64,000 nucleotides of DNA from the NCBI GenBank assembly GCA_963668625.2, contig CAXXKA010000010.1, forward strand, positions 64,001 to 128,000, given 5' to 3'. The position numbers were made by a program, and so were the translations under genes. The notes beneath the pieces were generated by a model that worked only from the letters and a program-made list of their open reading frames with translations, did not search any database and was not told where the DNA came from. How positions within the stretch are numbered: position 1 is the stretch's first letter; the number at the start of each line of letters is the position of its first letter. Below, in pieces: positions 10,781-34,595 of the stretch. Source of the DNA: an uncultured candidate division Zixibacteria bacterium (GTDB lineage: Bacteria > Zixibacteria > MSB-5A5 > UBA10806 > 4484-95).

Positions 10781-10800
10781 GAAATACTAAGTTAACAGCT

Positions 10801-12231: not shown

Positions 12232-12322
12232 TTTCTTATCTCCCTTCTTTTATCTAAAAAAAGAATTGTTCCAAGCTGCGTTGAATAACATTCATGGTTA
12301 TTCTATCTAAATATTTCTAAAG

Positions 12323-13873: not shown

Positions 13874-14061
13874 ATATCCTTCTGCATTAATCCAAGCTTT
13901 CCCTTGAGATATTAAAGAGAATAGTTTTAAGCCAATCAATTTTAAACTTCTAAAAGAAAACATAATGTAATATATTTTGTCAGGCAAGATAATTATTGTC
14001 TCGCGGATGGTTTGCTAAATGTCACAGTAAATCGAATTTACGTATTGTAAATGGGATCATC

Positions 14062-15459
14062 ATGGAACTGATCGTCAAAAACGGCAAAGTGATTACGGAA
14101 TCCGGCATAGCTCGATTGGATATCGGGATCGTAAACGGCATCATTGCTGATATCCGACCGGAACTGGATGAACGGGCGGATGAGGTTATCGATGCTAAAG
14201 GGATGCTGGTTATGCCGGGCGTTATCGATTCCCATGTGCATATGCAGTTGCCGGCGGGAGGTACTGTCTCCTCGGATGATTTTACCAATGGTACTAAAGC
14301 GGCGGCCTGCGGTGGCGTTACTACCATAGTCGATTTCGCCATTCAGGAAAAGGATCGCACTCTGGCAGAGGCTATCGCTTCAAGGCAAAAGGAAGCCGAC
14401 GGACATGTAGCAATAGACTATGCTCTTCACGCGGTACCTACTGACTGGAATACCGGTACTGCGGATGAGATAAAAAATGTCATAGGTAACGGCGTACCTA
14501 CTTTCAAGATATACATGGTGTATGCTAAGCAAGGATTAATGAGTGATGATGCGGGTTTGTTCACCGCTTTAGAACAAACCTCAAAACACGATGGCATGGT
14601 GACCGTGCACGCCGAGTCGCAAACCGTTCTCGATTTGCTTATTGATAGATATCACAAAAAAGATATGATGGCGAAATATGGTGTATATTGCCATGCTCTT
14701 TCTCGTCCCAACTATATCGAGGCCGAGGCGATATCCCGGGCGGTTACCTGGGCGGAGGCCACCGGCGGCAGGCTGTATATCGTTCATCTCTCCACGGCCG
14801 AGGGTGTTGATATTATCAAACAAGCTCGCGAGCGTGGAATATCGGTTCATGCCGAAACATGTCCGCAATATCTGCTTCTGGATGATTCGGTGTTCGGCGG
14901 ACCTGAAGGCTACCTTTATGCCTGCGCTCCGCCGGTACGGAAAAAGAATGATATCGAAAAGTTGTGGCTTGGACTCGCCGAGGGAGATATCGACGTGTTG
15001 GCTACCGATCATTGCCCGTTTACGATTGAGCAAAAATCAGCCTGGTCAGGTGATTTCACTAAAATACCCTGTGGTTTGCCCGGCGTGGAAACGCTGCTAC
15101 CGTTAATCTATACTTTTGGTGTAACAAAAGGCAGGTTTTCCGAGCAACGACTGGCGCGTTTATTGTGCTCCAATCCGGCTCGCTTGATGGGCATATATCC
15201 TAAAAAAGGAGTTTTGATGACAGGCTCGGATGCCGATATCGTGATTTTCGACCCGAACAAGAAAGCAAAACTCTCTCACAGTGATCTTCAAACGAATTGT
15301 GATTGGTCGCCGTATGAAAATTTCGAACTCACCGGTTTTCCCCGGATGACAATTAGCAGGGGTAAAATCGTATCGGAGAACGGAAAGTTTGTCGGCAGCA
15401 CCTCTCATGGCAAATTCATACGGCGTGGTAGAGTCGATTCTCCATTACATGTAAATTAG
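14062..15459 (+). CDS. hydA: Dihydropyrimidinase / hydantoinase (HydA/HyuA family)
   Basis: IDSHVH, FKIYMVY (carbamylated Lys), VHAE, VHLS, ETCPQYL, ATDHCPF. Confidence 0.92.
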   Translation: MELIVKNGKVITESGIARLDIGIVNGIIADIRPELDERADEVIDAKGMLVMPGVIDSHVHMQLPAGGTVSSDDFTNGTKAAACGGVTTIVDFAIQEKDRTLAEAIASRQKEADGHVAIDYALHAVPTDWNTGTADEIKNVIGNGVPTFKIYMVYAKQGLMSDDAGLFTALEQTSKHDGMVTVHAESQTVLDLLIDRYHKKDMMAKYGVYCHALSRPNYIEAEAISRAVTWAEATGGRLYIVHLSTAEGVDIIKQARERGISVHAETCPQYLLLDDSVFGGPEGYLYACAPPVRKKNDIEKLWLGLAEGDIDVLATDHCPFTIEQKSAWSGDFTKIPCGLPGVETLLPLIYTFGVTKGRFSEQRLARLLCSNPARLMGIYPKKGVLMTGSDADIVIFDPNKKAKLSHSDLQTNCDWSPYENFELTGFPRMTISRGKIVSENGKFVGSTSHGKFIRRGRVDSPLHVN

Positions 15460-15596
15460 CTTTTAATGCTAAATTGCCTTGCATTTGCTATACCGAATTT
15501 CGTATTTTACGCAATGCCGCAATATTTTTATAGGTTTTTATTGCCGTTAGCACGACGGTATTTTTCTGGTCTTTTAAAATATGAAAGAGATAAAAC

Positions 15597-16583
15597 ATGT
15601 CAGGTACATTGTATAACCGAGATTTCATAACCACACAGGAGTGGACCAAGGCCGAATTGGATCAGGCCGTAGAATTAGCTAAAGAGCTTAAGGACAAGAA
15701 ATATAATAAAATTCCTCACCGGCTGCTTGTCGATAAAACCGTATTTTTGTTTTTTTTCGATAAATCGACGCGGACACGTAATTCATTCGAGGCCGGTATC
15801 ACCCAACTCGGCGGACATGCTCATTTTATCGAGGCCTCAACTTCTCAGGTGGCCCATGGCGAAAGCCCGAAAGATATGGGTATCATTCTGTCATCCTATG
15901 GTGATGCAATAGCTATCCGTCATGATTTAGTGCCCGGCGAAGGCAATGCTTATATGAGAGAGGTTGCCGAGCACGCCTCGGTGCCTGTTTTCAATATGCA
16001 ATGTGATGTCGATCATCCGTTTCAAACACTGGCCGATTTGATGACTATCAAGGAACGATACGGTAACGATCTGAGCGGTTTGAAAATTGCCGTTAGCTGG
16101 GCGTACGCCCCTAGCTATGCCAAGCCGATGTCGGTACCACAGGGGCTTATCACGCTGATGACCCGCTATGGTATGGATGTCACTCTGGCACATCCGCCGG
16201 AGTTCAAACTGATGAGCGACCAGATTGAGCTGGCAAAGAACAACGCCTCGGAAAACGGCGGGAATTTCGAAATCGTAGATTCGATGGATGCCGCATTTGA
16301 AAAAGCCGATATCGTTTATCCGAAGAGCTGGGGAATCCATGAGCTTTTCGGTAATCCCGAGGAGGCATTGAAAATCGCCGGAAATTATAAGAAATGGATT
16401 TGCGATGATAAGCTAATGTCCGTAACTAAGAAGGATTCCATTTACATGCACTGCTTGCCTGCGGATCGCAATAACGAAGTAACCGACTCGGTTATCGATG
16501 GCTCGCATTCGGTGATATACCAGGAAGCGGAAAACCGCCTGCATACCTGCAAATCGGTAATGGCACTAACGATGGGTGAATGA
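15597..16583 (+). CDS. ygeW: YgeW-like knotted carbamoyltransferase
   Basis: STRTR, HPFQ, WAYAPSYAKPMSVPQG (YgeW-type), YPKSW, MHCLPAD. Confidence 0.85.
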   Translation: MSGTLYNRDFITTQEWTKAELDQAVELAKELKDKKYNKIPHRLLVDKTVFLFFFDKSTRTRNSFEAGITQLGGHAHFIEASTSQVAHGESPKDMGIILSSYGDAIAIRHDLVPGEGNAYMREVAEHASVPVFNMQCDVDHPFQTLADLMTIKERYGNDLSGLKIAVSWAYAPSYAKPMSVPQGLITLMTRYGMDVTLAHPPEFKLMSDQIELAKNNASENGGNFEIVDSMDAAFEKADIVYPKSWGIHELFGNPEEALKIAGNYKKWICDDKLMSVTKKDSIYMHCLPADRNNEVTDSVIDGSHSVIYQEAENRLHTCKSVMALTMGE

Positions 16584-17184
16584 TCGAATTAGCATGAACG
16601 AGCAAACCTCCAGGATAGCCGCCATTGTACTTGCCGCCGGCGAAGGAAGCAGAATCGGTTGCCCAAAGGCATTGATGGAATACGATGGCAAAAATTTCAC
16701 CCGCATGGTTGTGGAAAATCTTCAAGCCGCGAACTGCGAACCGATAATCGTTGTCGGTGGAGCCGAGGCCGACCGGGTTAAGAAACTCGTCGAAAGTTTG
16801 GACGTTCGATTTTCATTGAACGAGAATTGGCGCAACGGGCAATTCACCTCTCTTAAAGCGGGTGTTTCAAGTTTGAGTGAATATCATGGCGGGGTGCTGA
16901 TGGCGCTGGTCGACCATCCGTTCGTAGCGGGCGGCACCTATGAAGAGCTTATTGATATCGCCTCGAAAAATCCCGATTCGATAATAATACCAGTCATAGG
17001 AAGCAGGAGAGGTCATCCGATAGTAATTCCCGAAATCATTATTCGAGTGATAATAAAAGCGAATGAAAATGTTACTCTTCGCGACATAATAGCCAAACAT
17101 AAGGAACTGGTATTACACCATCCCGTGGAGGATGGAGGTATACTAAAGGATATCGATAGAGTAACGGATTTAGAAAGCGTGTAA
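16576..17184 (+). CDS. mocA: Molybdenum cofactor cytidylyltransferase (MocA/YgfJ family)
   Basis: LAAGEGSR.G.PK, LVDHP, GHP, DID; adjacent to xdh genes. Confidence 0.85.
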   Translation: MNDRISMNEQTSRIAAIVLAAGEGSRIGCPKALMEYDGKNFTRMVVENLQAANCEPIIVVGGAEADRVKKLVESLDVRFSLNENWRNGQFTSLKAGVSSLSEYHGGVLMALVDHPFVAGGTYEELIDIASKNPDSIIIPVIGSRRGHPIVIPEIIIRVIIKANENVTLRDIIAKHKELVLHHPVEDGGILKDIDRVTDLESV

Positions 17185-17188
17185 AGAT

Positions 17189-19435
17189 ATGAGCGTTGTC
17201 GGAAAAAGAGTGAGACGTTCGGAAAGCCCCAACCGTGTGCTTGGCGCCGGGTTGTTCGCCGATGATTTGAAATATCACGGTATGCTTCATGCTGCAATAG
17301 TACGCTCGCCGATTGCCAGGGGGAAAATCCAACACATTGATATTGATGGTATTCTGGGCAAATCCGGCGTTAAGGGCGTTTTCACCTATAAAGATATTCC
17401 CGGCGAAAATTACATCCCGGTGGTTGTCAACGACCAGCCGGCTTTAGCGGTGAGTAACGTTAACTATATCGGTGAACCGATTGCGGTAGTAGTGGCCGAT
17501 AGCAGGCGTAATGCCCGGGCCGCCGCTGCAACCGCAGAGCTGAATATCCGGAAGCTCGAACCCCTGCTTGACTTGCTAGAGGCGCGCCACCATCCTGAGA
17601 TAATTCTTTACGGCAAAGATAATATATTCAAAAAGCTACAGGTCAATCGCGGCGATACGGAAAAAGCGTTCGGCGAATGTGAGATCATCATAGAAAACGA
17701 GTACCGCACACCCTACCAGGAACACGCTTATATCGAACCACAGGCGATGATTGCCATACCAATGCCTGACGGATCGATAGAGATACGCGGTTCTATGCAG
17801 TGCCCGTTTTACGTGCGCAAGGCGGTTACGGCCGTACTGGGTCTTCCAGAAAGCAAGGTACGGGTGATTCAGACGGCCACCGGTGGAGCTTTCGGCGGCA
17901 AGGAGGATGTTCCCTCGCTTTTAGCCTGCCAGGCAGCCATACCGGCCGCTAAGCTGGGTAAACCGATCAAGCTGGTTTACGACCGAACCGAGGATATGAT
18001 ATCAATGTCTAAACGTCACCCGAGCTGGATCAGGTACAAATCGGGCGCTACTCGTGATGGCATATTAAAGGCGGTCGAAACCGAGTATGTCATAGATGGC
18101 GGTGCGTATGCTACGCTTTCGGCCGTGGTGCTGTTCCGGGGGACCGTTCATGCCGCCGGACCATATAAATGTGAGAACGTGAAAGTCGAAAGTTACGCGG
18201 TAGCTACGAATAAAGTTCCCTGCGGAGCGTTCCGTGGTTTCGGTTCGCCTCAGATATTGTTTGCCGCCGAGTCGCAGATGGATCAACTGGCGGCTGAGTT
18301 GAATCTCGACCCGGTAGAGTTCAGGCGCAGGAATCTGCTTCGACCCGGTGATAAAACGATAACCGGTCAATACCTGAAAAACAGCGTCGGTCTGGAGAAG
18401 ACATTGGATAAAACGATTCAGGTTTCCGGCTGGAGTCCCAAAATCAAAAAAGGAATAGATGAGGGTTATGGCTTCTCGACAATCTATTACGGCGTAGGTT
18501 TGGGCGCGGGCGGAAAACATCTGGCGAAAACCGGCGCGAGGGTGATAATACACGAGGACGGCTCCGTGCTGTTCAGTGTAGGTACCACCGAGATGGGGCA
18601 GGGGATGACTACGGTGCTTTCACAGATGGTGGCCGAGGAGCTGAACGTGCCTCTGGAGTGGGTAGACATGATACCCACCGATACCAGCCGCGTACCGGAT
18701 TCCGGGCCGACTGTCGCCTCCCGTTCGACCACGATGTCGGGAAATGCGCTTCGTGATGCCTGTATGAAAATAAAAAGCGTGATGTTGACCGAGGCCTCGG
18801 AGATGACCGGTGTGCCCTCGGCGAAAATAAATTTCGAGGATGCCCGGGTATTCGCTGGTGAAAAGTCCGTTCCAATAATCGATGTCATCAAATCGTGCGC
18901 TTCCAAACGTCTGCCGCTTTCTGCCGAGGGCTGGTACGTGCCGACCGCGATCGATTTCGATGAAAACACCGGCGCGGGTAATGCTTATGTGACATACGCC
19001 TGGGCAACCAACCTGGCGAAAGTCCGGGTGGACAGGCAAACCGGTGAGATATCGGTGTTGAAACTCTGGTCGGCGCATGATATCGGCAAGGCGATCAATC
19101 CTGCCCTGGCCGAGGGACAGATAGAGGGCGGAGTTCTTCAGGGGATGGGCTACGCAGTGATGGAGGATATGAACGCGGATTCCGATGGTAAGATAATCAA
19201 CAGCGAGTTTTCTACATACATTATCCCAACGGCCGAGGATCAACCGAAGATCGTGCCGATTATAGTAGAGGATCCATATCCGGACGGCCCGTTCGGTGCA
19301 AAAGGATTCGGCGAGCAACCGTTGATGGGAGTTGCTCCGGCAATCGCCAACGCCGTTTATGATGCTGTTGGTGTGCGTATTAAAGAGCTTCCGCTTACAC
19401 CGGAAAAAGTTTGGCTGGCAATGAGGCGAAAATGA
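17189..19435 (+). CDS. Xanthine dehydrogenase family molybdopterin-binding subunit 1
   Basis: QEHAYIEP, GGAFGGKED, AFRGFG, EMGQG, TVASR, KGFGE (catalytic Glu). Confidence 0.93.
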   Translation: MSVVGKRVRRSESPNRVLGAGLFADDLKYHGMLHAAIVRSPIARGKIQHIDIDGILGKSGVKGVFTYKDIPGENYIPVVVNDQPALAVSNVNYIGEPIAVVVADSRRNARAAAATAELNIRKLEPLLDLLEARHHPEIILYGKDNIFKKLQVNRGDTEKAFGECEIIIENEYRTPYQEHAYIEPQAMIAIPMPDGSIEIRGSMQCPFYVRKAVTAVLGLPESKVRVIQTATGGAFGGKEDVPSLLACQAAIPAAKLGKPIKLVYDRTEDMISMSKRHPSWIRYKSGATRDGILKAVETEYVIDGGAYATLSAVVLFRGTVHAAGPYKCENVKVESYAVATNKVPCGAFRGFGSPQILFAAESQMDQLAAELNLDPVEFRRRNLLRPGDKTITGQYLKNSVGLEKTLDKTIQVSGWSPKIKKGIDEGYGFSTIYYGVGLGAGGKHLAKTGARVIIHEDGSVLFSVGTTEMGQGMTTVLSQMVAEELNVPLEWVDMIPTDTSRVPDSGPTVASRSTTMSGNALRDACMKIKSVMLTEASEMTGVPSAKINFEDARVFAGEKSVPIIDVIKSCASKRLPLSAEGWYVPTAIDFDENTGAGNAYVTYAWATNLAKVRVDRQTGEISVLKLWSAHDIGKAINPALAEGQIEGGVLQGMGYAVMEDMNADSDGKIINSEFSTYIIPTAEDQPKIVPIIVEDPYPDGPFGAKGFGEQPLMGVAPAIANAVYDAVGVRIKELPLTPEKVWLAMRRK

Positions 19436-19902
19436 AAATAAAATTCAAATTAAATCATGAAGATGTCGAGATAGAGGCTCCGGGGGCCGAGCGTCTGATA
19501 GATATGCTCCGCGAGCGATTCGAACTGGTCGGTACCAAGGAGGGGTGCAGCAAGGGCGAATGCGGCGCCTGCACTATTCTTCTTGACGGCAAACCGGTTT
19601 GCTCGTGCTTGATGCTGGCCTCGCAGGTAATCGGGTGCGAGGTGATCACGATCGAAGGATTGGCAATCGATGGTAAAATGCATCCGGTACAGGAAGCATT
19701 CATAGAGACCGGCGCGGTGCAGTGCGGTTTCTGTTCACCTGGTTTGCTTTTGTCCTCGGCCGCGTTATTAAACGAGATACCGAATCCTGACAGACGGCAA
19801 ATCAGGCGGGCGCTATCGGGTAACCTGTGCCGATGTACCGGCTATGAGAAGATATTCGAGGCGGTGGAGATTGCCTCGCAAATGATGAGCAAAGGCAAGT
19901 GA
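19432..19902 (+). CDS. Xdh/CoxS-type 2x[2Fe-2S] subunit 1
   Basis: GCSKGECGAC, QCGFC, CRCTGY; ATGA overlap with the upstream stop. Confidence 0.93.
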   Translation: MKIKFKLNHEDVEIEAPGAERLIDMLRERFELVGTKEGCSKGECGACTILLDGKPVCSCLMLASQVIGCEVITIEGLAIDGKMHPVQEAFIETGAVQCGFCSPGLLLSSAALLNEIPNPDRRQIRRALSGNLCRCTGYEKIFEAVEIASQMMSKGK

Positions 19903-20753
19903 TCATGGTAAAGCATGATACGATTAATCCGACAAGTTTGAAAGGCGCTCTGGAAAGCCTGGCCGGTAGCAATATCATTCCGATTGCCGGCGGTACCGAT
20001 CTACTGGTGAAACTTCATGGGCAATACGATAAACCCTGGCCCTCGCTACTGGTGTTGGAAAGAGTAAAGCCGCTTCATAAGATTCAGGTAAAGAAAAACA
20101 CGGTAGCTATTGGACCACTGCTAACGTTTTCCGATATCGAACAATCAACGGAGTTGAAGAAATACGCTTTTCAATTAGCGGAGGCCGCCTCGGTAGCCGG
20201 CTCGACCCAGATCAGAAACCGGGCAACGATCGGAGGCAATGTCGCCAATGGTTCGCCATCGGGTGATTTGCTCCCGCCGCTCTACGTGCTGGGTGCGAAA
20301 CTTCGCCTGGCCTCGGTAAATGGTAGTCGTACCGTTCCTGTCGAGGACTTTTTCGAGGGACCCGGCCGGACTATCAAAAATAAAAAAGAATTGATAACCG
20401 CAATCGAGTTCGATAAATCGTATAAAGCCGGTTTTTTCAACCGTCTGGCTACACGGAAAGCGCTGGCGATCAGTAAGGTATCGGTCGCCGCTAATATATC
20501 ACTTAAAAAAAATCGAATAGAAAATATTAAAATTGCTCTGGGCGCGGTTGCTCCCACGGTTATCAGGGCATATGAAACAGAGGAATATCTAAAAGGCAAG
20601 ATGCTGAATGATGATGTTCTGGATAAAGCTATTGGTATCATAACGAGTGAAGCGAAACCTATAGATGATCTAAGATCACTTGCCGAGTATCGCAAGGAGA
20701 TGGTTGGGGTGCTGTTCAAGCGAGGTATCGAGAAATACATGCAGGTAAATTAA
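19899..20753 (+). CDS. Xdh/CoxM-type FAD subunit 1
   Basis: AGGTDL, QIRNRATIGGN, PIDDLRS. Confidence 0.92.
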   Translation: MIMVKHDTINPTSLKGALESLAGSNIIPIAGGTDLLVKLHGQYDKPWPSLLVLERVKPLHKIQVKKNTVAIGPLLTFSDIEQSTELKKYAFQLAEAASVAGSTQIRNRATIGGNVANGSPSGDLLPPLYVLGAKLRLASVNGSRTVPVEDFFEGPGRTIKNKKELITAIEFDKSYKAGFFNRLATRKALAISKVSVAANISLKKNRIENIKIALGAVAPTVIRAYETEEYLKGKMLNDDVLDKAIGIITSEAKPIDDLRSLAEYRKEMVGVLFKRGIEKYMQVN

Positions 20754-23074
20754 TGGGCGCGAGTAAGAAATTCAATGTCCTGGGCACGGCAATCCAACGC
20801 GTAGATTCGCTGGATAAAGTAACCGGCAAGGCTGTCTATGCCGCCGATCACAACGTAACCGGTCAGCTCTTCGGCCGGGTCAAATATCCCGACTATCCCC
20901 ACGCTAAAATCCTATCGATTGATATATCTGAAGCGAAATCATTGGATGGTGTCCGGGCGGTGATGATCGCCGAGGACATTCCGGGAGAGCCATCGTTCGG
21001 CTCGGTCGTTGCTCATCAAATGGCGCTGTGTACCGATAGAGTTCGTTTCTGGGGGGATGCCGTAGCGCTGGTCGCGGCGGATACTCCGGAACTTGCCGAG
21101 TACGCCGTATCACTTATAGAGGTGGAATACGAACCTCTGGAGGTGGTAAGCGATCCTAAAGAGGCGTTAAAGAAGAAGTCTATTAAAATACATAGCGGGG
21201 GTAACCTCTGCGTTCACCATAAGGTATCTAAAGGCGATATAGAAAAGGGATTCGCCCAATCGGATATCATACTCGAACGCGATTACCGTACTCAGAAAAT
21301 TGAACACGCATATCTCGAACCGGAGGCCGTGCTGGCTCGTCCCGGAGAGAATGGCGGCGTTACTATCGTTGGTTCGGTTCAAAACCTCTATACTATAAGG
21401 CGAGCGGTTGCCCGTGTTCTGGGTGTCGAGCTAAGTCGCGTGAGAATAGAGCAGGCGGTTCTTGGCGGCTCGTTCGGCGGTAAGGATGAGGTAATGGGCG
21501 CGATGTGTTGTCGAGCTGCTTTGTTGGCGCTGGCGACCGGCAGGCCGATAAAGATAGTCAACAGCCGCGAGCAATCGATGCGCGAATCGTACAAACGTCA
21601 CCCTTACCGGATAGAATACAAGATCGGCGCTACTGAATCCGGCGTTATCAAAGCGATTCAATCCGTGATGTACGCCGATGCCGGCGCTTATGCCACCATG
21701 TCTCCTTTCGTGACCTGGCGCTCGGTGGTGCACGGTTCGGGGCCTTATCGTATAGCTAATGTCAAAACCGATGTTTACGCGGCTTACACGAACAACTGCT
21801 ACACCGGGGCTATGCGCGGTTTCGGCTCGCCGCAGGTATGTTTCGCGGTGGAATCACTCATAGATGAACTTGCAGAAAAGCTTGGTATGAATCCTTATGA
21901 GTTGAGGATAAAGAATCTCATTAAGGATAACTCGATAACGGCCACCGGTCAAAAATTACAGCATAAGGTCGGTATCAGGCAGGTTCTTGACAACGTAATA
22001 AAACGCGCTGACTATGATGATAAATGGAATCGGTACAGAAAGCAAAGCCCTGCCGACGAGTTCAAACGCGGGATCGGCTTTTCATGCAGCTATCGGGGAG
22101 TTTCGCTGGGGGCCGAGGGTATCGATGCTGCCGGTGTGAATATCTCTATTCAAACGGATGGTTCGATAATAGCCTCGACCGGTTTGATCGAAATGGGGCA
22201 GGGGGCCGCCACTACGATTTCGATGATAATCGCGGAAGAGCTTGGCGTGACCACCGATCATATAAGGTTCTTGAACGCCGACACCTCGATCACGCCCGAC
22301 TCGGGGCCGACCGTAGCCTCGCGTACTACCATAATGGCCGGCAACGCCGCTCGTAACGGTTGCCGTGAGCTTTTGAAAAAACTGAAACCTGTTGCCGCCG
22401 AATATCTGGGCTGCGCTACCGGGCAATTAAAATTAAAAGACAATATTATTCATTCTGATAATAAAGAAATGAATTTCAGTGAGCTTGCCGCGATATGTTT
22501 CGGTAAGGGGATCCCAATGTATACACTTGGCTGGTACAAGTCCCCAAAAACATCGTGGGACGAGGAGACCGGTAAAGGCGAGGCATATTTCACGTTCGTA
22601 TACGGCGCGAACCTGGCGGAGGTTGAGGTCGATTGCGTGACAGGTAAGGTGAGATTGTTGAATTTCATCAGCTCCCACGATCTTGGCAGGGTGGTAAATT
22701 TAAACGGCGCGAAAGGACAGGTTTACGGCGGTGTGGCAATGGGAATGGGATACGCCCTGTTCGAGACATACAGTGAATCCGACGGTATCCCGAAATTCGA
22801 AAACTACGACGAGTACCTGATTCCCACCATATGCGATATGCCACCCGTTGAAATCGAGTTCGTGGAAAATCCCGATAAGCTCGGCCCGTTTGGCGCGAAA
22901 TCGATAGGCGAGCCCGCGTGCGAACTGGCCGCCCCGGCAATCGCTAACGCCATATACAACGCCACCGGCAGACGATTACTCGAATTGCCTATTACATTGG
23001 AACAGGTGTTGATCGGGAAGAACCTGACTCGCACGGAATCACGCGGCTCCTCGAAAGCGCGGGGTGAAGACTGA
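20753..23074 (+). CDS. Xanthine dehydrogenase family molybdopterin-binding subunit 2
   Basis: EHAYLEP, GGSFGGKDE, AMRGFG, EMGQG, TVASR, KSIGE. Confidence 0.93.
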   Translation: MGASKKFNVLGTAIQRVDSLDKVTGKAVYAADHNVTGQLFGRVKYPDYPHAKILSIDISEAKSLDGVRAVMIAEDIPGEPSFGSVVAHQMALCTDRVRFWGDAVALVAADTPELAEYAVSLIEVEYEPLEVVSDPKEALKKKSIKIHSGGNLCVHHKVSKGDIEKGFAQSDIILERDYRTQKIEHAYLEPEAVLARPGENGGVTIVGSVQNLYTIRRAVARVLGVELSRVRIEQAVLGGSFGGKDEVMGAMCCRAALLALATGRPIKIVNSREQSMRESYKRHPYRIEYKIGATESGVIKAIQSVMYADAGAYATMSPFVTWRSVVHGSGPYRIANVKTDVYAAYTNNCYTGAMRGFGSPQVCFAVESLIDELAEKLGMNPYELRIKNLIKDNSITATGQKLQHKVGIRQVLDNVIKRADYDDKWNRYRKQSPADEFKRGIGFSCSYRGVSLGAEGIDAAGVNISIQTDGSIIASTGLIEMGQGAATTISMIIAEELGVTTDHIRFLNADTSITPDSGPTVASRTTIMAGNAARNGCRELLKKLKPVAAEYLGCATGQLKLKDNIIHSDNKEMNFSELAAICFGKGIPMYTLGWYKSPKTSWDEETGKGEAYFTFVYGANLAEVEVDCVTGKVRLLNFISSHDLGRVVNLNGAKGQVYGGVAMGMGYALFETYSESDGIPKFENYDEYLIPTICDMPPVEIEFVENPDKLGPFGAKSIGEPACELAAPAIANAIYNATGRRLLELPITLEQVLIGKNLTRTESRGSSKARGED

Positions 23075-24461: not shown

Positions 24462-24462
24462 T

Positions 24463-26924: not shown

Positions 26925-26952
26925 GTGATTATTTTTTCAGGAGTATATAGTT

Positions 26953-28698
26953 ATGTCATCAAACCCATTTGCCAGACGGTCAACCCAGTCGATCAAGGAA
27001 CTGGTCGAGGTATCCTCGGGAAAGAAGCCTGCGGATATATGTCTGGAAAACGCAAAAATAGTTAATGTTTATTCCAACGAGATTATCGAGGGCAATGTCG
27101 CGATATACCAGGATAGAATTGCCGGTGTAGGGCCGAAATACAAAGCTACCAAAAAAATCAATCTAAAAGGCAAATATATTGCGCCCGGTTTTATAGACGG
27201 TCACTTTCATATCGAATCCTCACTGGTAATTATTCCCGAGTTAGCCCGGGTGATCGTACCTCGTGGGACAACCTCTGTTATCGCCGATCCTCACGAGATA
27301 ACCAACGTGCTCGGGTATGACGGTATAAGGTTCATGCTGGAATCTTCCAAGTATAATCCACTTAACGTTTTTTTCACCCTGCCCTCATGCGTTCCGGCAA
27401 CCGATCTGGAGACCTCCGGCTCATCCATGAAAGCATTCGATATATTTCCGTTCTTTACCGAGAAATGGGTCGTGGGTTTGGGCGAGGTAATGAACTACCC
27501 CGGTGTGCTGAACGGTCAGGATGATGTTATCGAAAAAATCGCTATTACCGAGGGGAAACGTATCGATGGTCACGCGCCCGGAGTTGGTGGCAAAGACCTG
27601 GCCGGATATATCTCCGCCGGTATCGCTTCCGATCACGAGTCGACCTCGCTGGAGGAAGCCCGCGAGAAACTTAGGCTGGGTATGTACGTGATGATACGCG
27701 AGGGCTCCGCGGCTAAAAATCTCGATAGCCTTTTACCCCTGGTGAACCATAAGAACAAAGGTCGATTCATATTCGTAACCGATGATCACAATCCGCTGGA
27801 TATCCTGTCGGCCGGGCATATCGACGGCGTAGTCAGAAAAGCGATCAAGAAAGGTCTCGATCCGATTACCGCCATTCAGCTTGCTACATTGAACCCGGCG
27901 GAGTATTTCGGCGTAACCGATATCGGCGCGATCGCTCCCGGATTGCTCGCCGATATGATCGTGTTCGAGGATTTGAAGAAGATCAATATCACCGATGTTT
28001 ATAAAAGCGGCAAGCAGGTCGGGAAAAACGGCAAGCCTGTTTATGATGATGTCCCGCATCCCCGCCCGGTTATAAGGAGCACGGTCAATATCAAATGGCT
28101 CGAGGGGAACGAGTTTCGTATTCCTGCCGAAAACGGTAAATGCCGCGTTATCGGAATAGTACCGAACCAGCTGGTGACCAATAGCAAGGTATTAAAGCCA
28201 AAAGTTCAGAATGGCGAAGTCGTTTCCGATCCCGGGCGTGATATCCTGAAACTATTCGTACTCGAAAGGCATACCGCCTCGGGAAGAATCGGTAAAGGAC
28301 TGGTGCAAGGGTTAGGTATTAAAAAGGGGGCCGTTGCCACCTCGATAGCTCACGATTCGCATAATATCATTGCGGCAGGTGTTAACGATGAGGACATATT
28401 CAAAGCCGTGATACAGATAAACAAAATCGGCGGCGGTATGGCTGTCGTTGCCGACGGCAAACTTCTGGCGGATGTCAAACTACCGATAGCCGGACTGATG
28501 TCGGATAAATCGATGATTGATGTCGCAGCCGATATCAAGAAGCTCAAGAAGACGATTCGTAAACTGGGTTCGGAACTGGAGGACCCGATGATGACATTGA
28601 GTTTCATGGCGTTGCCGGTTATCCCTCAATTGAAGCTTACTGATTTCGGCTTGATCGATGTCAACAGTTTCCAGCAAGTGGGGCTGTTCGTTGACTGA
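26953..28698 (+). CDS. ade: Adenine deaminase
   Basis: DGHFHIESS, DPHEI, EVMNYPGV, DGHAP, REGSAAKNL, AHDSHN, LPVIP. Confidence 0.93.
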   Translation: MSSNPFARRSTQSIKELVEVSSGKKPADICLENAKIVNVYSNEIIEGNVAIYQDRIAGVGPKYKATKKINLKGKYIAPGFIDGHFHIESSLVIIPELARVIVPRGTTSVIADPHEITNVLGYDGIRFMLESSKYNPLNVFFTLPSCVPATDLETSGSSMKAFDIFPFFTEKWVVGLGEVMNYPGVLNGQDDVIEKIAITEGKRIDGHAPGVGGKDLAGYISAGIASDHESTSLEEAREKLRLGMYVMIREGSAAKNLDSLLPLVNHKNKGRFIFVTDDHNPLDILSAGHIDGVVRKAIKKGLDPITAIQLATLNPAEYFGVTDIGAIAPGLLADMIVFEDLKKINITDVYKSGKQVGKNGKPVYDDVPHPRPVIRSTVNIKWLEGNEFRIPAENGKCRVIGIVPNQLVTNSKVLKPKVQNGEVVSDPGRDILKLFVLERHTASGRIGKGLVQGLGIKKGAVATSIAHDSHNIIAAGVNDEDIFKAVIQINKIGGGMAVVADGKLLADVKLPIAGLMSDKSMIDVAADIKKLKKTIRKLGSELEDPMMTLSFMALPVIPQLKLTDFGLIDVNSFQQVGLFVD

Positions 28699-30025
28699 TA
28701 AAGCTAAGCTAATAGTATCGTGTCAGGATATTTTCACCAATGAAAAAAGCTGTCCGCTTATTCGCTCCGGCGCGATACTCATGGAAGACGGATTGGTCAA
28801 AGAGGTTGGCGAGGCCGGGAAAATTAAAGCTCGATATCCGGAGGCTAAAGTCGAAAATCTCGGCGCCGGCCTAATTACGCCGGGATTGGTTAACCTTCAC
28901 CATCACCTTTACTCCTCTTTCGCCAGAGGCTGGAATCCCGGAACGGAATCTCCGGTTAATTTCCCGCAAATATTAGAACGTATCTGGTGGCGACTCGATA
29001 AAGCTCTTAACCTCGATGATATATACTACTCCGCAATAGTCGGTTTGTGCGAATCGATACGTATGGGAGTAACCGCCGTTGTCGATCACCACGCCGGCCA
29101 GAATATGGTAACAGGTTCGTTGGATAATATCGCCGCCGCATTTACCGAAATAGGTTTGAAAGGTTCGGTCTGTTTCGAGTTAAGCGACAGAGGTGGATCG
29201 AGTATTTTTCAGGATGGGTTAAGCGAAAATATTAACGCTATCGAAAAGTATAATATGACCAACAGTAAGCTCGAACCGATGGTTGGACTTCACGCCTCTC
29301 TGACTCTTTCGGATAAGAGTTTGGAAACGATATATCGCGCAACAAAGGATTCGGGTGCGGGATATCATCTGCATTTGGCCGAGGATAAATCCGATCAAGA
29401 GGATTCGGAATCCAAATATGGTATGAGGGTCACCGAACGTTTTGCCAGGTATAATCTGTTAAATGATAAATCGCTGGCCATTCATGGAGTTCATCTAAAC
29501 GATGATGAAATCAAGATTTTAGCGGATGCCGGCGCAAACCTGGTAATTTGTCCCCGATCGAATCAGAACAACGGCGTAGGTATTCCTCGATGGTGGGACT
29601 ATGATAACGTTAATGTCGGCCTGGGTACCGATGGGATCGATTCGAGTGTTATCAACGAGGCGAAATCTGCGCTATATATAACTCATCACGAGCGTAAAAA
29701 TCCCGATTTCGGATTCGGCCGGCTTAGCGATATGCTTTTCGGGCGCAATCCCGAGATATTCGAAAAAATTACCGGTGTGAGAGTCGGAAAGATAGCTGCA
29801 GGTCATCCGGCTGATATTGTTTATTGGGATTACGACTCACCTACGCCCGTAAATGAAAATAACATAGCCGGCCATTACCTGTACGGGCTGGGCAATCATC
29901 TAGCCGATACCGTTTGGATTGATGGTGAAAAAGTATATGGAAAAGGCGAGTTCAAAAAAATCGATTATAGAAAACTCATGAGCGAAGCACGAGAGGCGGC
30001 CGGTAGTTTATGGCAAAGATTATAA
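28691..30025 (+). CDS. ssnA: SsnA-like metal-dependent aminohydrolase
   Basis: NLHHHLYSSFARG, WWRLDKAL, GLHASLT, HLHLAED, GTDG. TTG start at 28691 overlapping the ade stop is inferred. Confidence 0.85.
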   Translation: MTDKAKLIVSCQDIFTNEKSCPLIRSGAILMEDGLVKEVGEAGKIKARYPEAKVENLGAGLITPGLVNLHHHLYSSFARGWNPGTESPVNFPQILERIWWRLDKALNLDDIYYSAIVGLCESIRMGVTAVVDHHAGQNMVTGSLDNIAAAFTEIGLKGSVCFELSDRGGSSIFQDGLSENINAIEKYNMTNSKLEPMVGLHASLTLSDKSLETIYRATKDSGAGYHLHLAEDKSDQEDSESKYGMRVTERFARYNLLNDKSLAIHGVHLNDDEIKILADAGANLVICPRSNQNNGVGIPRWWDYDNVNVGLGTDGIDSSVINEAKSALYITHHERKNPDFGFGRLSDMLFGRNPEIFEKITGVRVGKIAAGHPADIVYWDYDSPTPVNENNIAGHYLYGLGNHLADTVWIDGEKVYGKGEFKKIDYRKLMSEAREAAGSLWQRL

Positions 30026-31269
30026 AATACAGCCTGAAGTGTGTTTCCTGTGATAAGGAATTTGAGCCCAAATCGAGCGTAATGACCTGTCCCGAATGCG
30101 GCGAGTTCAGGGGCACGCTAGATGTAATCTATCCATACGATGAAATAAAAAGCAGTTTTACGAAACCTTTATCGTTTTATGGCAGAGATTCGGTCTACGA
30201 ATCATTATTGCCTATTATGCCATACGATAATCCTGCCTGCTTGCCTCCCGTACCTGTCGGTTCGACACCTATATTCGAATCACCGGCCTTATCGAAAATA
30301 CTGGGGCTGAACAATCTCTGGCTGAAAGATGACAGCCGCAATCCCTCGGCCTCATTGAAAGACAGGGCGTCGGCAACAACGCTGGCTATGGCTAATGAAT
30401 CTGGCGCCTCGGTAATCGCGGTTGCCTCTACCGGTAACGCCGCCTCCTCGCTGGCAACATTGGCAGCCTCTATGTCGATAACCGCCATGCTGTTCGTCCC
30501 AAAAACTATACCTCGCCCCAAGCTGGCCCAGCTGACTATTCACGGAGCTAAAATTATCTGCCTCGATTGCGACTACGACAGTGCGTTCGACCTATGTCAG
30601 CTTGCCTGTAAAAGATTTGGCTGGTACAACCGTAACACCGCGGTAAACCCGTACACCGGCGAGGGCAAGAAAACAGCCGCGCTGGAAATCGCCTGTAGCC
30701 TGGGGGAATCGCCGGATGTAGTAATATGTCCTGTAGGGGATGGCTGTATACTGAGTGGGATTTACAAGGGATTTTGGGATCTTCGGAAATTAGGCCTTAT
30801 AGATAAGATACCGAGACTTTACGGTGTGCAGGCCTCGGGTTCAGCGCCGCTGGTAAAAGCTTTCGAAAGCGGTAACGATATAACGCCAATCGAAAGTGTC
30901 AACACTATCGCGGATTCCATTTCGGTCGGTTACCCTCGTGATGGCGTTAAAGCGATGAGAGCGGTCAAAAATAGCAGTGGTAAATTCATAACCGTCTCCG
31001 ATGATCAAATAGTTAAAGCTCAGCAACTGGCGGCCTCGAAAGGCGGCGTTTTCGTTGAGCCGGCGGCGGCGGCGGCGATCGCGGGGCTGTTATCACTTAA
31101 CGAGAATAACGAATTCTCGAAAAACGAAAAAATCGTAACCTTACTTACGGGGCATGGCCTGAAAGATATCGACACGGTAATTAAAAATACTAAAACCGAT
31201 ATCGAAATCATGCAACCGGATATCGATATCATAACCGAAAAGATAGAAAAAACTATACGCTGGAGATAA
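30010..31269 (+). CDS. Threonine-synthase-like PLP enzyme (fold type II) with N-terminal Zn ribbon; substrate probably not O-phosphohomoserine
   Basis: CVSC/CPEC, NPSASLKDR (Schiff-base Lys), ASTGNAA, PVGDG, TGHGLK. Confidence 0.8.
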   Translation: MAKIIKYSLKCVSCDKEFEPKSSVMTCPECGEFRGTLDVIYPYDEIKSSFTKPLSFYGRDSVYESLLPIMPYDNPACLPPVPVGSTPIFESPALSKILGLNNLWLKDDSRNPSASLKDRASATTLAMANESGASVIAVASTGNAASSLATLAASMSITAMLFVPKTIPRPKLAQLTIHGAKIICLDCDYDSAFDLCQLACKRFGWYNRNTAVNPYTGEGKKTAALEIACSLGESPDVVICPVGDGCILSGIYKGFWDLRKLGLIDKIPRLYGVQASGSAPLVKAFESGNDITPIESVNTIADSISVGYPRDGVKAMRAVKNSSGKFITVSDDQIVKAQQLAASKGGVFVEPAAAAAIAGLLSLNENNEFSKNEKIVTLLTGHGLKDIDTVIKNTKTDIEIMQPDIDIITEKIEKTIRWR

Positions 31270-31279
31270 AGGAGAACTT

Positions 31280-32332
31280 ATGGCAATCAAGTGGGATGCG
31301 TACAACACTATCACCGATAACATTTTCGATACTATCGGCAGAACACCTTTAGTTAGATTGAGTAAAATCCCCGAACTGACCGGAATCGACTGCGAGATAC
31401 TGGGCAAACTGGAATATTTCTCGCCCTCAGGAAGCTTGAAAGACAGAATTTACCTGAATATGTTCGATCTGGCCGAACAAAGAGGCGAACTGAAACCCGG
31501 TATGACCGTGCTGGAATGCTCGACGGGAAATGCCGGAATCGGTTGCTCTTTCGTAGCCGCCACCAAAGGATACAAGTGCATCATAGTAATGCCCAGGGGG
31601 ATGTCCGAAGAGCGTAAAATGCTCGATATGATTTATGGTTCGGAGATGGTTTACACACCAGGCGGTGAAAGCGATGTCGATTTAGCATTGGAGAAGTTGC
31701 AGGAAATTAAAAATCAGGATCCAGATAAATACTGGGTACCGGCACAGTTCGATAATCCCGACAATATCGAGGCGCATTACCGCACTACCGGTCCTGAGAT
31801 ATGGGAGCAGACGGATGGTAAGTTCGATGCTTTCATCGCGACCCAGGGAACCGGAGGCACGATCACGGGGGCGGGAAGGTATTTCCATCAGTTCAATAAA
31901 GATATCAAACTTTACGCTATCGAACCGGCGGAATGCCCACTTCTTTCAAAACGTGTCTGGGGACCGCATGGCATCGAGGGTATCGGGGATGGTTTCGTGC
32001 CGCTAAATCTCGATGTCTCGATCCTTAGTGGCATTATTACCACTACCACCAAAGAAGCTGTGGAGATGGCTAAAATATTAGCCGCCAAAGAGGGGATATT
32101 CTGCGGAATATCATCGGGTTCTAATGTCGCCTCGGCTGTTAAGCTGGCGAAGAAACATCCGGAGATAAAACGAATCGTAACCATGATTAACGACACGGGT
32201 CAGCGTTATTTCTCGACACCGTTATGCGGGGTGGAGAAACATCTGGAGATACCCGAAAGATCTCACCCTATGGACGATAGAACTATTGCGGAGCTGGATA
32301 AATATCAAGCTGACTGGGAAATTATCGAATGA
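31280..32332 (+). CDS. Cysteine-synthase-like PLP enzyme (fold type II)
   Basis: IGRTPLV, SGSLKDR, CSTGNAG, QFDNPDN, GTGGT, GISSG. Confidence 0.8.
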   Translation: MAIKWDAYNTITDNIFDTIGRTPLVRLSKIPELTGIDCEILGKLEYFSPSGSLKDRIYLNMFDLAEQRGELKPGMTVLECSTGNAGIGCSFVAATKGYKCIIVMPRGMSEERKMLDMIYGSEMVYTPGGESDVDLALEKLQEIKNQDPDKYWVPAQFDNPDNIEAHYRTTGPEIWEQTDGKFDAFIATQGTGGTITGAGRYFHQFNKDIKLYAIEPAECPLLSKRVWGPHGIEGIGDGFVPLNLDVSILSGIITTTTKEAVEMAKILAAKEGIFCGISSGSNVASAVKLAKKHPEIKRIVTMINDTGQRYFSTPLCGVEKHLEIPERSHPMDDRTIAELDKYQADWEIIE

Positions 32333-33537
32333 GTACACCTGATCCCAAAGAGATATTAAAAAGTGCGGAGAAATACCGCGACTACTCCAGCGAGCTGCTC
32401 TCGAAACTGATCAGGATACCGTCGGTTTCCGGTGAGGAGAAAAGCGTAGTCGAATTCCTCGAACAGGAATTCAATGAGTGCGGTGCTGATGAGGTTACTA
32501 TCGATCCTTTCGGCAACATAATCGCCCGGTTGGGTAGCGGTAAGCCGGCAATCGCTCTCGATGCTCATATCGATACGGTCGATATCGGTATGAAAGACCA
32601 GTGGCAAACCGATCCGTTCTCGGGCATAATCCGGGATGGTAAAGTATTCGGCAGGGGAACATCCGACCAGAAAGCCGGTATGGCCTCCATGATGACAGCC
32701 CTGAGAATTCTTAAAGAATGCTGTGATGATTTTCCGTTCACACTGTATTTTACCGGTTCGGTACTGGAGGAGGATTGTGACGGTTTATGCTGGCAGTATA
32801 TTATCAAAGAGGACAAACTAAAACCCGATCTGGTAATCATCACCGAACCAACCGACGGTAAAATCAATCGCGGGCAACGCGGACGTATGGAGATCGAGAT
32901 CGTTACGAAAGGCGTATCATGTCATGGTTCGGCTCCGGAGCGTGGCGATAACGCGATCTACAAGTTGGCCCCGATAATAACCGCCCTCGAGAAACTTAAC
33001 GAGAGATTAAAAACGGATGAGTTCCTGGGGAAAGGCACCCTGGCTATCTCGAGAATTCGATCCAATGCTCCCTCGCTTTGTGCCGTGGCGGATATGGCGG
33101 CGTTATATATAGACAGGCGAACCACCGCCGGCGAGACCGCCGAATCGGTAGTTGCCGAGATTAACGCCTTACCTGAGGTAAGGGCGGCGAACGCTACCAT
33201 AGTGATTCCTGAATATGACAGGCGTACCTGGAACGGGCTGTCGTACCCTACCTCCAAAATATTTCCGGCCTGGGCGCTTCCCGAGAATCATGATTATCTG
33301 GATAAGGCATCAGGATGCTATGAGTCGTTATTCGATACCGAGCCCGTAATAGATAAATGGACGTTCTCGACTAATGGTGTAGCCACTATGGGCATGTTCG
33401 ATATTCCAACGTTCGGTTATGGCCCGGGGATGGAGAAAATGGCACACGCGCCCAATGAGTACATGAATATAGATGACCTCGTGAAATGCTCGGCGTTTTA
33501 TGCCGCTTATCCTTTTGCGTTTGTCAATGAATACTAA
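32329..33537 (+). CDS. ygeY: YgeY family M20 hydrolase
   Basis: DAHIDTV, GRGTSDQK, EEDCDGLCW, RGQRGR, SCHGSAPERGDNA, WTFSTNGV, AHAPNE. Confidence 0.9.
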   Translation: MSTPDPKEILKSAEKYRDYSSELLSKLIRIPSVSGEEKSVVEFLEQEFNECGADEVTIDPFGNIIARLGSGKPAIALDAHIDTVDIGMKDQWQTDPFSGIIRDGKVFGRGTSDQKAGMASMMTALRILKECCDDFPFTLYFTGSVLEEDCDGLCWQYIIKEDKLKPDLVIITEPTDGKINRGQRGRMEIEIVTKGVSCHGSAPERGDNAIYKLAPIITALEKLNERLKTDEFLGKGTLAISRIRSNAPSLCAVADMAALYIDRRTTAGETAESVVAEINALPEVRAANATIVIPEYDRRTWNGLSYPTSKIFPAWALPENHDYLDKASGCYESLFDTEPVIDKWTFSTNGVATMGMFDIPTFGYGPGMEKMAHAPNEYMNIDDLVKCSAFYAAYPFAFVNEY

Positions 33538-33542
33538 TTCAT

Positions 33543-33796
33543 TTCTAGTGTCTGGCTTTTCCTTCTCGTTGCGAAGCGCTGCTTTGTAAGGTGGCTTGTT
33601 TGCAGGCAGAATGCGCATTCTACATGACTCGAGAAGGTTCCCAGGCAGCGCTTGGAAACCAGGGAACCAAGCCTGGCATCGGCAGGACATATCAGGACGC
33701 ATGATACGATGAATATATAATTGTATCAGAAAATATCTTTCACTAATAATCCCAATGAGAAATTTAAAATTTATCGAAAAACACCGGACACTAGTG
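33543..33796 (+). mobile_element. MITE copy 1 (~254 bp; left end degraded, no target duplication visible)
   Basis: Colinear with the copies at 47221 and 60678; right end CCGGACACTAGTG, left end ttCTAGTGTCTGG. Confidence 0.8.
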
Positions 33797-33818
33797 AAAA
33801 TAATAGAAAATTAATCAG

Positions 33819-34595
33819 CTACAATATTTCACTGTGACGTTTAACGCTAATCACCTCGGCGGCGATCGCTATGGCTATCTCGTGTGGCCCCTCGGCGCCA
33901 ATGCTGAGGCCTATCGGTGAGTGAACTTTTTCGAGAAGTTTTATGTCGATGCCATCGCTTTTCAACGCGGCATAGGTTCTGGCTATTTTCTTTTTCGAGC
34001 CAATCATTCCGATATAGGCGTATTCTTTCGTGACGACTTTCGCCAGTATATCTTTATCGTACTTATGACCCTGGGTAACTATTACTATATAGCAATTTCG
34101 GTCAATCTCGGGGATATCTGCCTGGTAGTTTTCATCGGCGAGTATGGTTTGTACCGGCGGCTCGTAATGGGCCAATATCTCTTTTCTGTTATCTATAACT
34201 ATCGTTCGGAAATTCAGGCCTGCCATTACCTCGGTTAATGCCCGGCAGACATGTCCGCCACCGAATATCAGAAGTTTATCCGGGGCATCATATAACTCCA
34301 GGAAGACCTGCGCTTTGCCGCCGCATATCATACCGGTTGAATCCGGTCCGGCCTCCTCCAAATCATATGATTCGAGCAGATGCTTGGCGTATCCGGTAAA
34401 AAGGGAAAGGGCGTTCTCTACGACAATTCTTTCGAAATTACCACCGCCGATCGTCCCCTCCAGCGCGCCATCCCGATATACTATCATCTTGGCTCCGGGT
34501 CGCCTGGGAGTATGACCGGAGGTATCGACCAGCGTTGCCAGCACGCACGGTATCCCACGTTCGATATTATCATTTACTTTTTTAATGATATCCAT
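33819..34595 (-). CDS. xdhC: XdhC/CoxI family Moco-insertion accessory protein
   Basis: GHTPRRPGAKM, GTIGGG, MICGG, YIGMIGS, PIGLSIGAEGPHEIA. Confidence 0.9.
   Translation of the reverse strand: MDIIKKVNDNIERGIPCVLATLVDTSGHTPRRPGAKMIVYRDGALEGTIGGGNFERIVVENALSLFTGYAKHLLESYDLEEAGPDSTGMICGGKAQVFLELYDAPDKLLIFGGGHVCRALTEVMAGLNFRTIVIDNRKEILAHYEPPVQTILADENYQADIPEIDRNCYIVIVTQGHKYDKDILAKVVTKEYAYIGMIGSKKKIARTYAALKSDGIDIKLLEKVHSPIGLSIGAEGPHEIAIAIAAEVISVKRHSEIL

Follow-up and report, generated by a model that had tools for sequence, protein, structure and literature searches.

A Zixibacteria gene cluster for a predicted variant of the reductive purine pathway, with candidate pyridoxal-phosphate enzymes in the place of DpaL

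In the reductive purine pathway, as solved in two recent studies (Li 2025, PMC12507026; Liu 2025, 10.1101/2025.04.24.650524), XdhD/DOPDH converts urate to 2,8-dioxopurine, which YgfK then reduces. Ring opening by SsnA and HyuA yields 2,3-diureidopropionate, YgeW and YgeY strip the ureido groups, and YgeX/DpaL turns 2,3-diaminopropionate into pyruvate. In Escherichia coli K-12, the uricolytic region reads ygeW-ygeX-ygeY-hyuA-yqeA ... mocA-ygfK-ssnA-ygfM-xdhD. Variants of the reduction step have been reported: the C. difficile PydA homolog UacX (PF01180) performs the YgfK reaction, and an F420 luciferase-like reductase is a candidate in Chloroflexota (Li 2025, PMC12507026), while a PreA-like "dehydrogenase X1" was described beside hyuA, ygeW, ygeY, ssnA, xdhABC, and yqeA (Barba 2013, PMC4016543). 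Here, we analyzed a related cluster of 17 genes, 16 co-directional on the forward strand and one convergent on the reverse strand according to the list of open reading frames (ORFs), at positions 13996-34595 of a 64,000-nucleotide stretch of an uncultured Zixibacteria genome (GCA_963668625.2, contig CAXXKA010000010.1). This whole stretch is called the window below.

The cluster shares with E. coli SsnA, HyuA, YgeY, a probable YgeW-type carbamoyltransferase, and a MocA-like protein; in both, a reductase lies beside SsnA and molybdenum (Mo) hydroxylases belong to the cluster. Unlike E. coli, the window genome lacks YgfK, YgeX/DpaL, an XdhD-type Mo subunit, and YqeB, and its carbamate kinase is unlinked. 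In their stead, the cluster contains a PreT/PreA-like pair, a ThrC-like and a CysK-like enzyme. It further has two XdhABC-type trimers with XdhC and an adenine deaminase (Ade). An initial annotation, made from the letters of the window, had proposed a variant of the urate/2,8-dioxopurine cluster without ygfK and dpaL in a probably non-gut lineage. This was borne out: SsnA, HyuA, and YgeY scored above their family cut-offs (Table 1), neither missing gene was found anywhere in the genome (4.3 Mb in 10 contigs, 95.9% complete, which is the scope of all whole-genome absences given here), and the host is an uncultured sediment-type bacterium of a non-gut candidate phylum. The ORF list and family matches also agreed with the gene set and the tight junctions described between 15597 and 33537, where neighboring genes overlap by 1 to 41 bases or are separated by 1 to 28 bases. 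The PreT/PreA-like pair and two fold-type-II pyridoxal 5'-phosphate (PLP) enzymes do lie inside the operon, in conserved synteny.

Judged from its sequence, this cluster probably encodes a form of the reductive purine/urate (2,8-dioxopurine) pathway that is linked to NAD(P)H, needs no selenium cofactor, and would have PLP enzymes in place of DpaL. It is best read as departing from the E. coli and Clostridium models in three respects, namely, a PreT-coupled PreA-like reductase, ThrC-like and CysK-like enzymes for DpaL, and XdhABC-type Mo enzymes that appear to be independent of a selenium cofactor.

Cluster conservation and the two PLP enzymes

SsnA was found in 15 of 285 genomes of the phylum (the window genome included), distributed over three families of one class, and we compared the DNA around all 14 other copies. 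The order YgeW-like, MocA, Xdh1, Xdh2, PreT, PreA, (Ade), SsnA, ThrC-like, CysK-like, (YgeY), XdhC was kept in 14 of 14 relatives as far as the contigs reach; because of this, the arrangement is not due to chance. The ThrC-like and CysK-like genes adjoined SsnA wherever the contig allows. The YgeW-like protein was 75 to 84% identical in the six relatives covering that position, five of which had a MocA-like gene between it and Xdh1. Ade was found at the same position in nine of the 14 loci. XdhC likewise held its position in nine, and several contigs of the other loci stop short of it. Other positions were more variable. A xanthine/uracil permease was inserted between Xdh2 and PreT in three relatives, and YgeY lay outside the cluster in three genomes of genus g11, all three encoding it elsewhere. 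HyuA adjoined the cluster only in the window, in G246, in G261 (in pieces), and, at the other end, in G254. The G261 homolog (L031 2141-3528) matched as three pieces in different frames, possibly owing to a frameshift or an assembly error.

The two PLP enzymes had a narrow distribution. ThrC-like orthologs (49 to 65% identical) were present in 16 of the 285 genomes, the next best match being at most 37% identical. CysK-like orthologs (72 to 82% identical, C-terminal extension included) occurred in the same 16, and there the next best match reached at most 49%, ended around residue 315, and lacked the extension. These 16 genomes are the 15 with SsnA and the fragmentary G247. DpaL gave best scores of only 40 and 43 bits in the window genome, against cut-offs of 274 and 532. 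With threonine synthase and CysK, the two proteins share fold type II, the PLP lysine, and the cofactor-binding loops; unlike those enzymes, the window-type forms are confined, within the 285-genome phylum, to purine-cluster genomes.

Outside the phylum, when an alignment of 11 ThrC-like proteins was used to search named genomes, it gave 80 loci with matches of 40 to 65% identity in Chloroflexota, Calditrichota, delta-type proteobacteria, Eisenbacteria, Acidobacteriota, Gemmatimonadaceae, Elusimicrobia, Ignavibacteriales, a Bacilli metagenome-assembled genome, Verrucomicrobia, and some Pseudomonas. After dropping five duplicate loci and rows shorter than 330 amino acids (aa), 74 non-Zixibacteria rows were left, and purine-pathway genes lay within 8 kb of 29 of them. 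At least 12 loci contained a module of YgeY, YgeW-like, (an amino-acid-kinase-family, carbamate-kinase-like protein), and ThrC-like, in which the ThrC-like gene holds the place that ygeX has in E. coli between ygeW and ygeY. A CysK-like (52 to 56% identical) and ThrC-like pair stood beside Xdh genes in Dehalococcoidia and Anaerolineae loci. In two Chloroflexota genomes (L130 and L131), the CysK-like gene occurred alone, in the series Ade, YgeW-like, CysK-like, HyuA, XdhD-like, SsnA.

DpaL was found in none of the 28 purine-context genomes outside the phylum (one of them, G300, unpublished) and in none of the 15 Zixibacteria, that is, in 0 of 44 genomes with a purine-context ThrC-like gene once the window genome is counted. 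Full-length YgfK was present in three of the 28. The exchange of the lyase is therefore independent of the exchange of the reductase.

Three Dehalococcoidia/Anaerolineae loci (L059, around 6100-11200, L060, and L107) carry Xdh, F420 luciferase-like, DUF6282, CysK-like, and ThrC-like genes together with an arylmalonate-decarboxylase/hydantoin-racemase-like gene; SsnA, YgeY, and YgeW are not nearby. In one of these genomes (G291), SsnA and YgeY were not found genome-wide. These loci may represent a further rewired route.

The structures closest to the ThrC-like protein (212 bits) were threonine synthases (2ZSJ, 2D1F, 6CGQ, and 1UIM), and those closest to the CysK-like protein (272 bits) were CysK (2EGU and others). 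The PLP lysine of the ThrC-like protein, K117, is invariant. T88, S155, R160, and N188 (T. thermophilus numbering) are common to all four of these solved threonine synthases, whereas the window protein has A144, A211, T216, and D244 at these positions. Omi and co-workers are said to have found, in 2003, that the four shared residues hold the phosphate of O-phosphohomoserine. Among 88 rows of the ThrC-like family, the R160 position was T, L, M, or N but never R, and the N188 position was D in 82, counts that are biased since the retrieval patterns included two of the counted motifs. An ammonium or ureido leaving group would go well with an aspartate at the latter position. In the CysK-like protein, the PLP lysine, the GTGGT loop, and the Ser found in canonical cysteine synthases are retained; the protein has the loop STGNAG, versus TSGNTG in CysK, and a conserved C-terminal extension of about 35 residues.

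In another reading, the pathway stands but its PLP enzymes are assimilatory beta-replacement enzymes rather than lyases. Diaminopropionate or albizziin would be converted to serine by the ThrC-like enzyme (with water) and to cysteine by the CysK-like enzyme (with sulfide), or the latter would expel urea from albizziin. In line with this, the CysK-like protein scores 345 against the TIGR01139 cut-off of 351, the solved CysK homolog O-ureido-L-serine synthase (3X43) handles a ureido compound, and one shared lyase function would leave unexplained why 16 of 16 Zixibacteria keep the two PLP enzymes next to each other. On the other hand, the loci where either gene occurs alone (at least 12 for ThrC-like, L130 and L131 for CysK-like) suggest overlapping roles, a housekeeping CysK (435 bits) is encoded elsewhere in the window genome, and YgeY is present elsewhere in seven of seven checked genomes that miss it from the cluster and otherwise have the pathway, so that a bypass is not indicated. 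We consider the assimilatory reading unlikely.

Two narrower proposals were also dropped. A bypass of YgeY by the CysK-like enzyme was rejected, as YgeY is encoded elsewhere in three of three g11 and four of four CysK-only genomes lacking it in the cluster, and an obligate ThrC-like/CysK-like complex was set aside, as each protein occurs without the other.

Several observations weigh against the replacement of DpaL by these enzymes. In the window genome, no gene but the ThrC-like one attains the TIGR00260 cut-off for threonine synthase; the other ThrC-family gene (G000:C8:125622-126722; L127 6623-7720) reaches none of the threonine synthase cut-offs and lacks hom or thrB neighbors. Because of this, it is only the distribution of the ThrC-like protein that excludes a housekeeping role for it. 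A literature search on the presumed phosphate site of threonine synthase returned nothing relevant. ThrC and CysK enzymes normally use L-substrates, and the pathway intermediates have been proposed to be D-configured (Percudani, PMC12990295). In a quick maximum-likelihood tree of 89 rows, the 43 purine-context ThrC-like rows were interspersed with 46 context-free ones, which include a clade of 21 Caldilineaceae-type rows, six Pseudomonas, four Chloroflexia, and three Verrucomicrobia. The context label changed 12 times on this tree, at least five of the changes being forced by well-supported branches. Five of the context-free genomes each had at least two further ThrC-family genes.

The Chloroflexota gave a mixed picture as well. 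In an even sample of 301 genomes, 43 had SsnA above the cut-off, and 38 of these had a ThrC-like homolog at E <= 1e-75, which was within 10 kb of SsnA in only seven. Eight of the 43 had a CysK-like gene. DpaL was found in four, on a contig other than that of SsnA or separated from it by at least 48 kb, and it had no pathway gene within 10 kb in the two whose loci were read (L135 and L136). The four did not overlap with the 11 genomes that had a CysK-like or an SsnA-linked ThrC-like gene, a separation that alone is not significant (estimated P of about 0.3), related genomes not being independent. The remaining 28 lacked DpaL as well as any linked gene of the ThrC-like or CysK-like kind. Mutual exclusivity of ThrC/CysK-like clades and DpaL, which the initial annotation had put forward as a test, held for the ThrC-like family in the 44 purine-context genomes and failed at the loose threshold, where all four DpaL-bearing Chloroflexota also carried a weaker, unlinked ThrC-like homolog. 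For the converse test, SsnA was above the cut-off in only two of 251 genomes of the phylum of the Bacilli genome G309, which is too few.

No published description of a PLP-enzyme exchange for DpaL was found, supplementary files being outside the search. The terms "threonine synthase" and "cysteine synthase" are absent from the text of Li 2025 (PMC12507026) and of the Liu preprint (10.1101/2025.04.24.650524), again with supplements outside the search. We likewise found no paper linking ssnA, threonine synthase, and xanthine dehydrogenase, or Zixibacteria, xanthine dehydrogenase, and purine. Judging by titles and the beginnings of abstracts, the papers listed for 8-dioxopurine deal with gut or host metabolism or with tools for it, apart from one unrelated thiopurine/DNA-glycosylase study.

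The PreT/PreA-like pair and ring reduction

YgfK gave no match above its cut-off of 835 in the whole window genome, the best matches covering only its GltD-like part, and the full-length protein was found in none of the 15 Zixibacteria. The PreA-like gene stands one or two genes upstream of SsnA in all relatives whose contigs extend that far, and ygfK is likewise near ssnA in E. coli. In every locus that reaches it, the PreT-like subunit is next to PreA. The PreT-like protein is 31% identical to residues 454-849 of YgfK, which form the GltD-like part. The term "non-orthologous displacement", used in the initial annotation for both exchanges, is therefore too strong: YgfK itself has a PreT-like domain, and the exchange of the lyase is one between paralogous families because DpaL is itself a PF00291 enzyme.

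The PreA-like protein has the marks of PreA and dihydropyrimidine dehydrogenase (DPD), namely, the family score, a PreT partner, and the catalytic Cys671, but it differs at the Asn668 position (pig DPD numbering). We take Asn668 of pig DPD to be a pyrimidine-binding residue and Cys671 to be the proton donor. A serine replaced the asparagine in 13 of 13 SsnA-linked PreA-like copies (the window, 10 Zixibacteria, one Eisenbacteria locus, and one deltaproteobacterial locus), all of which keep Cys671. Asn is found at this position in pig DPD, in E. coli PreA, and in a second PreA of the relative G254. That second, pyrimidine-type PreT/PreA (L017 18-3402) is 33 to 38% identical to the cluster pair and lies beside a HyuA homolog at the far end of the cluster. 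The window genome has no second PreA. The PreA-like protein is proposed to be a 2,8-dioxopurine (purine-ring) reductase.

As a kind, this exchange of the reductase is real but already published, X1 (Barba 2013, PMC4016543) and UacX (Li 2025, PMC12507026) having preceded it. As in both of these systems, a DHOD/DPD-superfamily FMN enzyme replaces YgfK beside ssnA, hyuA, ygeY, and xdh. What is new is the PreT partner and the serine at the Asn668 position: in the account of Li 2025 (PMC12507026), UacX lacks an FAD/NAD(P)H partner and is presumed to depend on ferredoxin. The window protein passes the PreA equivalog cut-off and is compared with X1 and UacX here by their published descriptions.

A further reading takes the locus for a mixed island. 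PreT/PreA, HyuA, and YgeY would then serve the usual reductive breakdown of pyrimidines (uracil/thymine), the Xdh trimers, Ade, and SsnA would only oxidize or deaminate purines, and the ThrC-like and CysK-like enzymes would serve amino acid biosynthesis. PreA indeed exceeds its NCBIfam equivalog cut-off, PreA and HyuA are the sole genes of their kind in the genome, and, as said above, so is the ThrC-like gene above the TIGR00260 cut-off. However, the PreA-like protein differs from three of three pyrimidine-type enzymes at the Asn668 position and accompanies SsnA in three phyla, HyuA is not consistently beside the cluster, and G254 has its separate PreT/PreA plus HyuA. Furthermore, the ThrC-like protein lacks Arg160 and, like its CysK-like neighbor, is confined to the 16 SsnA-type genomes. 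We give a mixed island very little credence.

Proteins of about 670 aa with 4Fe-4S motifs, whose match to YgfK is limited to its N-terminal 400 residues, were observed in five of the 28 purine-context genomes (for example, L133 13196-15205 and L122 4668-6668). The gene is directly downstream of SsnA in L133 and about 1.5 kb downstream in L122. This looks like a form of YgfK without the NAD(P)H module.

Molybdenum enzymes and the proposed route

The two Xdh trimers are the sole Mo hydroxylases in the genome and belong to the xanthine dehydrogenase family, reaching none of the equivalog cut-offs. Each Mo subunit has more identity with E. coli XdhA (31%) than with XdhD (27%), and the two subunits are 40% identical to each other. 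Their active-site motifs (GGKE, FRGFG, and GEQP in subunit 1; GGKD, MRGFG, and GEP in subunit 2) were compared with regard to xanthine dehydrogenase and urate reductase roles and assign neither. Glu606 of XdhD has been proposed to orient urate (Li 2025, PMC12507026). The XdhD insertion that bears it is absent from both window subunits, from five Zixibacteria orthologs, and from E. coli XdhA; it is present in three of three Chloroflexota cluster Mo subunits. YqeB, a selenium-cofactor marker, gave no match in the genome. SelD is present in two copies, the second of which (G000:C1:154251-155174) has one in-frame TGA and is probably a selenocysteine-containing SelD.

The cluster resembles the Chloroflexota variant in being environmental and non-gut, and many of the sampled Chloroflexota clusters also carry ThrC-like and/or CysK-like genes. 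It differs from them in that their Mo subunits are XdhD-type with the Glu606 insertion and their reductases are F420-type or consist of the YgfK N-terminal domain plus ferredoxin.

The route that we favor would run as follows, all catalytic assignments being inferred. Ade and the two XdhABC-type Mo enzymes would convert adenine and hypoxanthine to oxidized purines, and one trimer would also have to make the C6-unsubstituted, 2,8-dioxopurine-like substrate. The PreT/PreA-like pair would reduce its C5=C6-type double bond, in the role of YgfK/UacX, and SsnA and HyuA would open both rings to give 2,3-diureidopropionate. The short YgeW-like transferase would free one ureido group as carbamoyl phosphate, which the unlinked carbamate kinase could turn into ATP, and YgeY would hydrolyze the other to leave 2,3-diaminopropionate. 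The ThrC-like and/or CysK-like enzyme would then remove the beta-substituent by PLP chemistry, giving pyruvate and ammonia in place of DpaL/YgeX.

The initial annotation had called the route complete, and here it went too far. There is no recognizable 2,8-dioxopurine-producing catalyst of the XdhD/DOPDH type, because the Mo subunits lack the XdhD-type insertion and YqeB is missing. The window cluster contains no permease gene, and the carbamate kinase (NF009007, 340 against a cut-off of 266) is on another contig, outside any arginine deiminase operon. The first of these gaps also counts against the favored route. Either one XdhA-like trimer took over the 2,8-dioxopurine step or the pathway entry differs.

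In the latter case, purines would still be broken down reductively, through a ring-reduction substrate other than 2,8-dioxopurine and with the XdhD/DOPDH-type enzyme missing. This would be in agreement with the XdhA-like character of both Mo subunits, the missing YqeB, and the remodeled PreA pocket at the Asn668 position. It is decidedly improbable in our view: SsnA, HyuA, YgeW-like, and YgeY are the same as the E. coli set, which implies a 2,3-diureidopropionate intermediate with its CH2 derived from purine C6 (inferred from the chemistry in Li 2025).

Starting again from the favored 2,8-dioxopurine route, a bolder version is possible, though we hold it only tentatively. The ThrC-like and CysK-like proteins would be two undescribed diaminopropionate or albizziin (ureido-alanine) lyases, possibly one per enantiomer or substrate, with which the pathway would usually end in environmental bacteria; moreover, a selenium-cofactor-independent XdhABC-type enzyme of the Zixibacteria would have independently taken over urate 6-dehydroxylation.

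Features, flanks, and implications

The coordinates of the features are collected in Table 1. The HyuA family match begins at residue 23-26, and the true start is possibly near 14062. The structures nearest to the YgeW-like protein are both E. coli YgeW (3Q98 and 2YFK); it is 41% identical to that enzyme and about 36 residues shorter over the aligned region.

Table 1. Features of the window cluster, with NCBIfam and Pfam profile scores of the window proteins set against the curated cut-offs
Feature	Position	Strand	Family score and identity
HyuA-type D-hydantoinase/dihydropyrimidinase	13996..15459	+	TIGR02033, 468 > 393; 38% identical to E. coli HyuA
Short YgeW-like carbamoyltransferase, 328 aa	15597..16583	+	Best model YgeW NF005538, 274 < 453
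MocA-like molybdenum cofactor cytidylyltransferase	16576..17184	+	TIGR03310, 131 bits, below cut-off 186
Xdh trimer 1 (Mo 17189-19435, 2Fe-2S 19411-19902, FAD 19899-20753)	17189..20753	+	
Xdh trimer 2 (Mo 20753-23074, FAD 23074-23934, 2Fe-2S 23931-24461)	20753..24461	+	
PreT-like NAD(P)H/FAD/Fe-S subunit	24463..25719	+	Pfam Fer4_20 and Pyr_redox_2; 32% identical to E. coli PreT
PreA-like FMN/Fe-S subunit	25716..26924	+	NF006183, 403 > 335; 36% identical to E. coli PreA
Adenine deaminase (Ade)	26953..28698	+	TIGR01178, 656 > 472
SsnA amidohydrolase	28658..30025	+	NF005540, 462 > 444; TIGR03314, 436 < 455.5; 35% identical to E. coli SsnA
ThrC-like fold-type-II PLP enzyme, N-terminal CxxC...CxxC	30010..31269	+	TIGR00260, 201 > 167
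CysK-like fold-type-II PLP enzyme, C-terminal extension of ~35 aa	31280..32332	+	TIGR01139, 345.1 < 350.95
YgeY M20 hydrolase (ureido-group hydrolase)	32329..33537	+	NF009555, 542 > 321; 52% identical to E. coli YgeY
XdhC-type Mo-cofactor insertion chaperone	33819..34595	-	Pfam XdhC_CoxI and XdhC_C; TIGR02964, 151 < 162

By family, the flanks are unrelated to the pathway. The 5' flank (from 7589 to 12781) encodes an HI0933-like flavoprotein, rubrerythrin, a ferritin-like protein, catalase, and a Fur-family regulator, and the 3' flank encodes FabF and the cytochrome bd oxidase CydAB (37455-39817). With oxygen-defense and respiration genes around an "anaerobic" purine cluster, the organism is probably exposed to oxygen. 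Two ORFs, at 13229-13987 (reverse strand, 252 aa, abutting the HyuA start) and 9491-10117 (forward strand, 208 aa), had no Pfam match at 1e-5, and their status as genes is doubtful.

The oxygen-free urate pathway was solved in gut bacteria in 2025 and is being engineered into probiotics against gout, and a published commentary calls it restricted to selected anaerobes. The cluster and its relatives point to uncultured environmental phyla assembling this pathway, or a close variant of it, from parts that can be interchanged. Should diaminopropionate or albizziin prove to be substrates of the ThrC-like and CysK-like enzymes, this would define two new PLP activities, correct a widespread mis-annotation ("threonine synthase" and "cysteine synthase"), and open a direct approach to the order of ureido cleavage and its stereochemistry. 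A selenium-independent, NADH-linked set of enzymes could also be easier to express heterologously.

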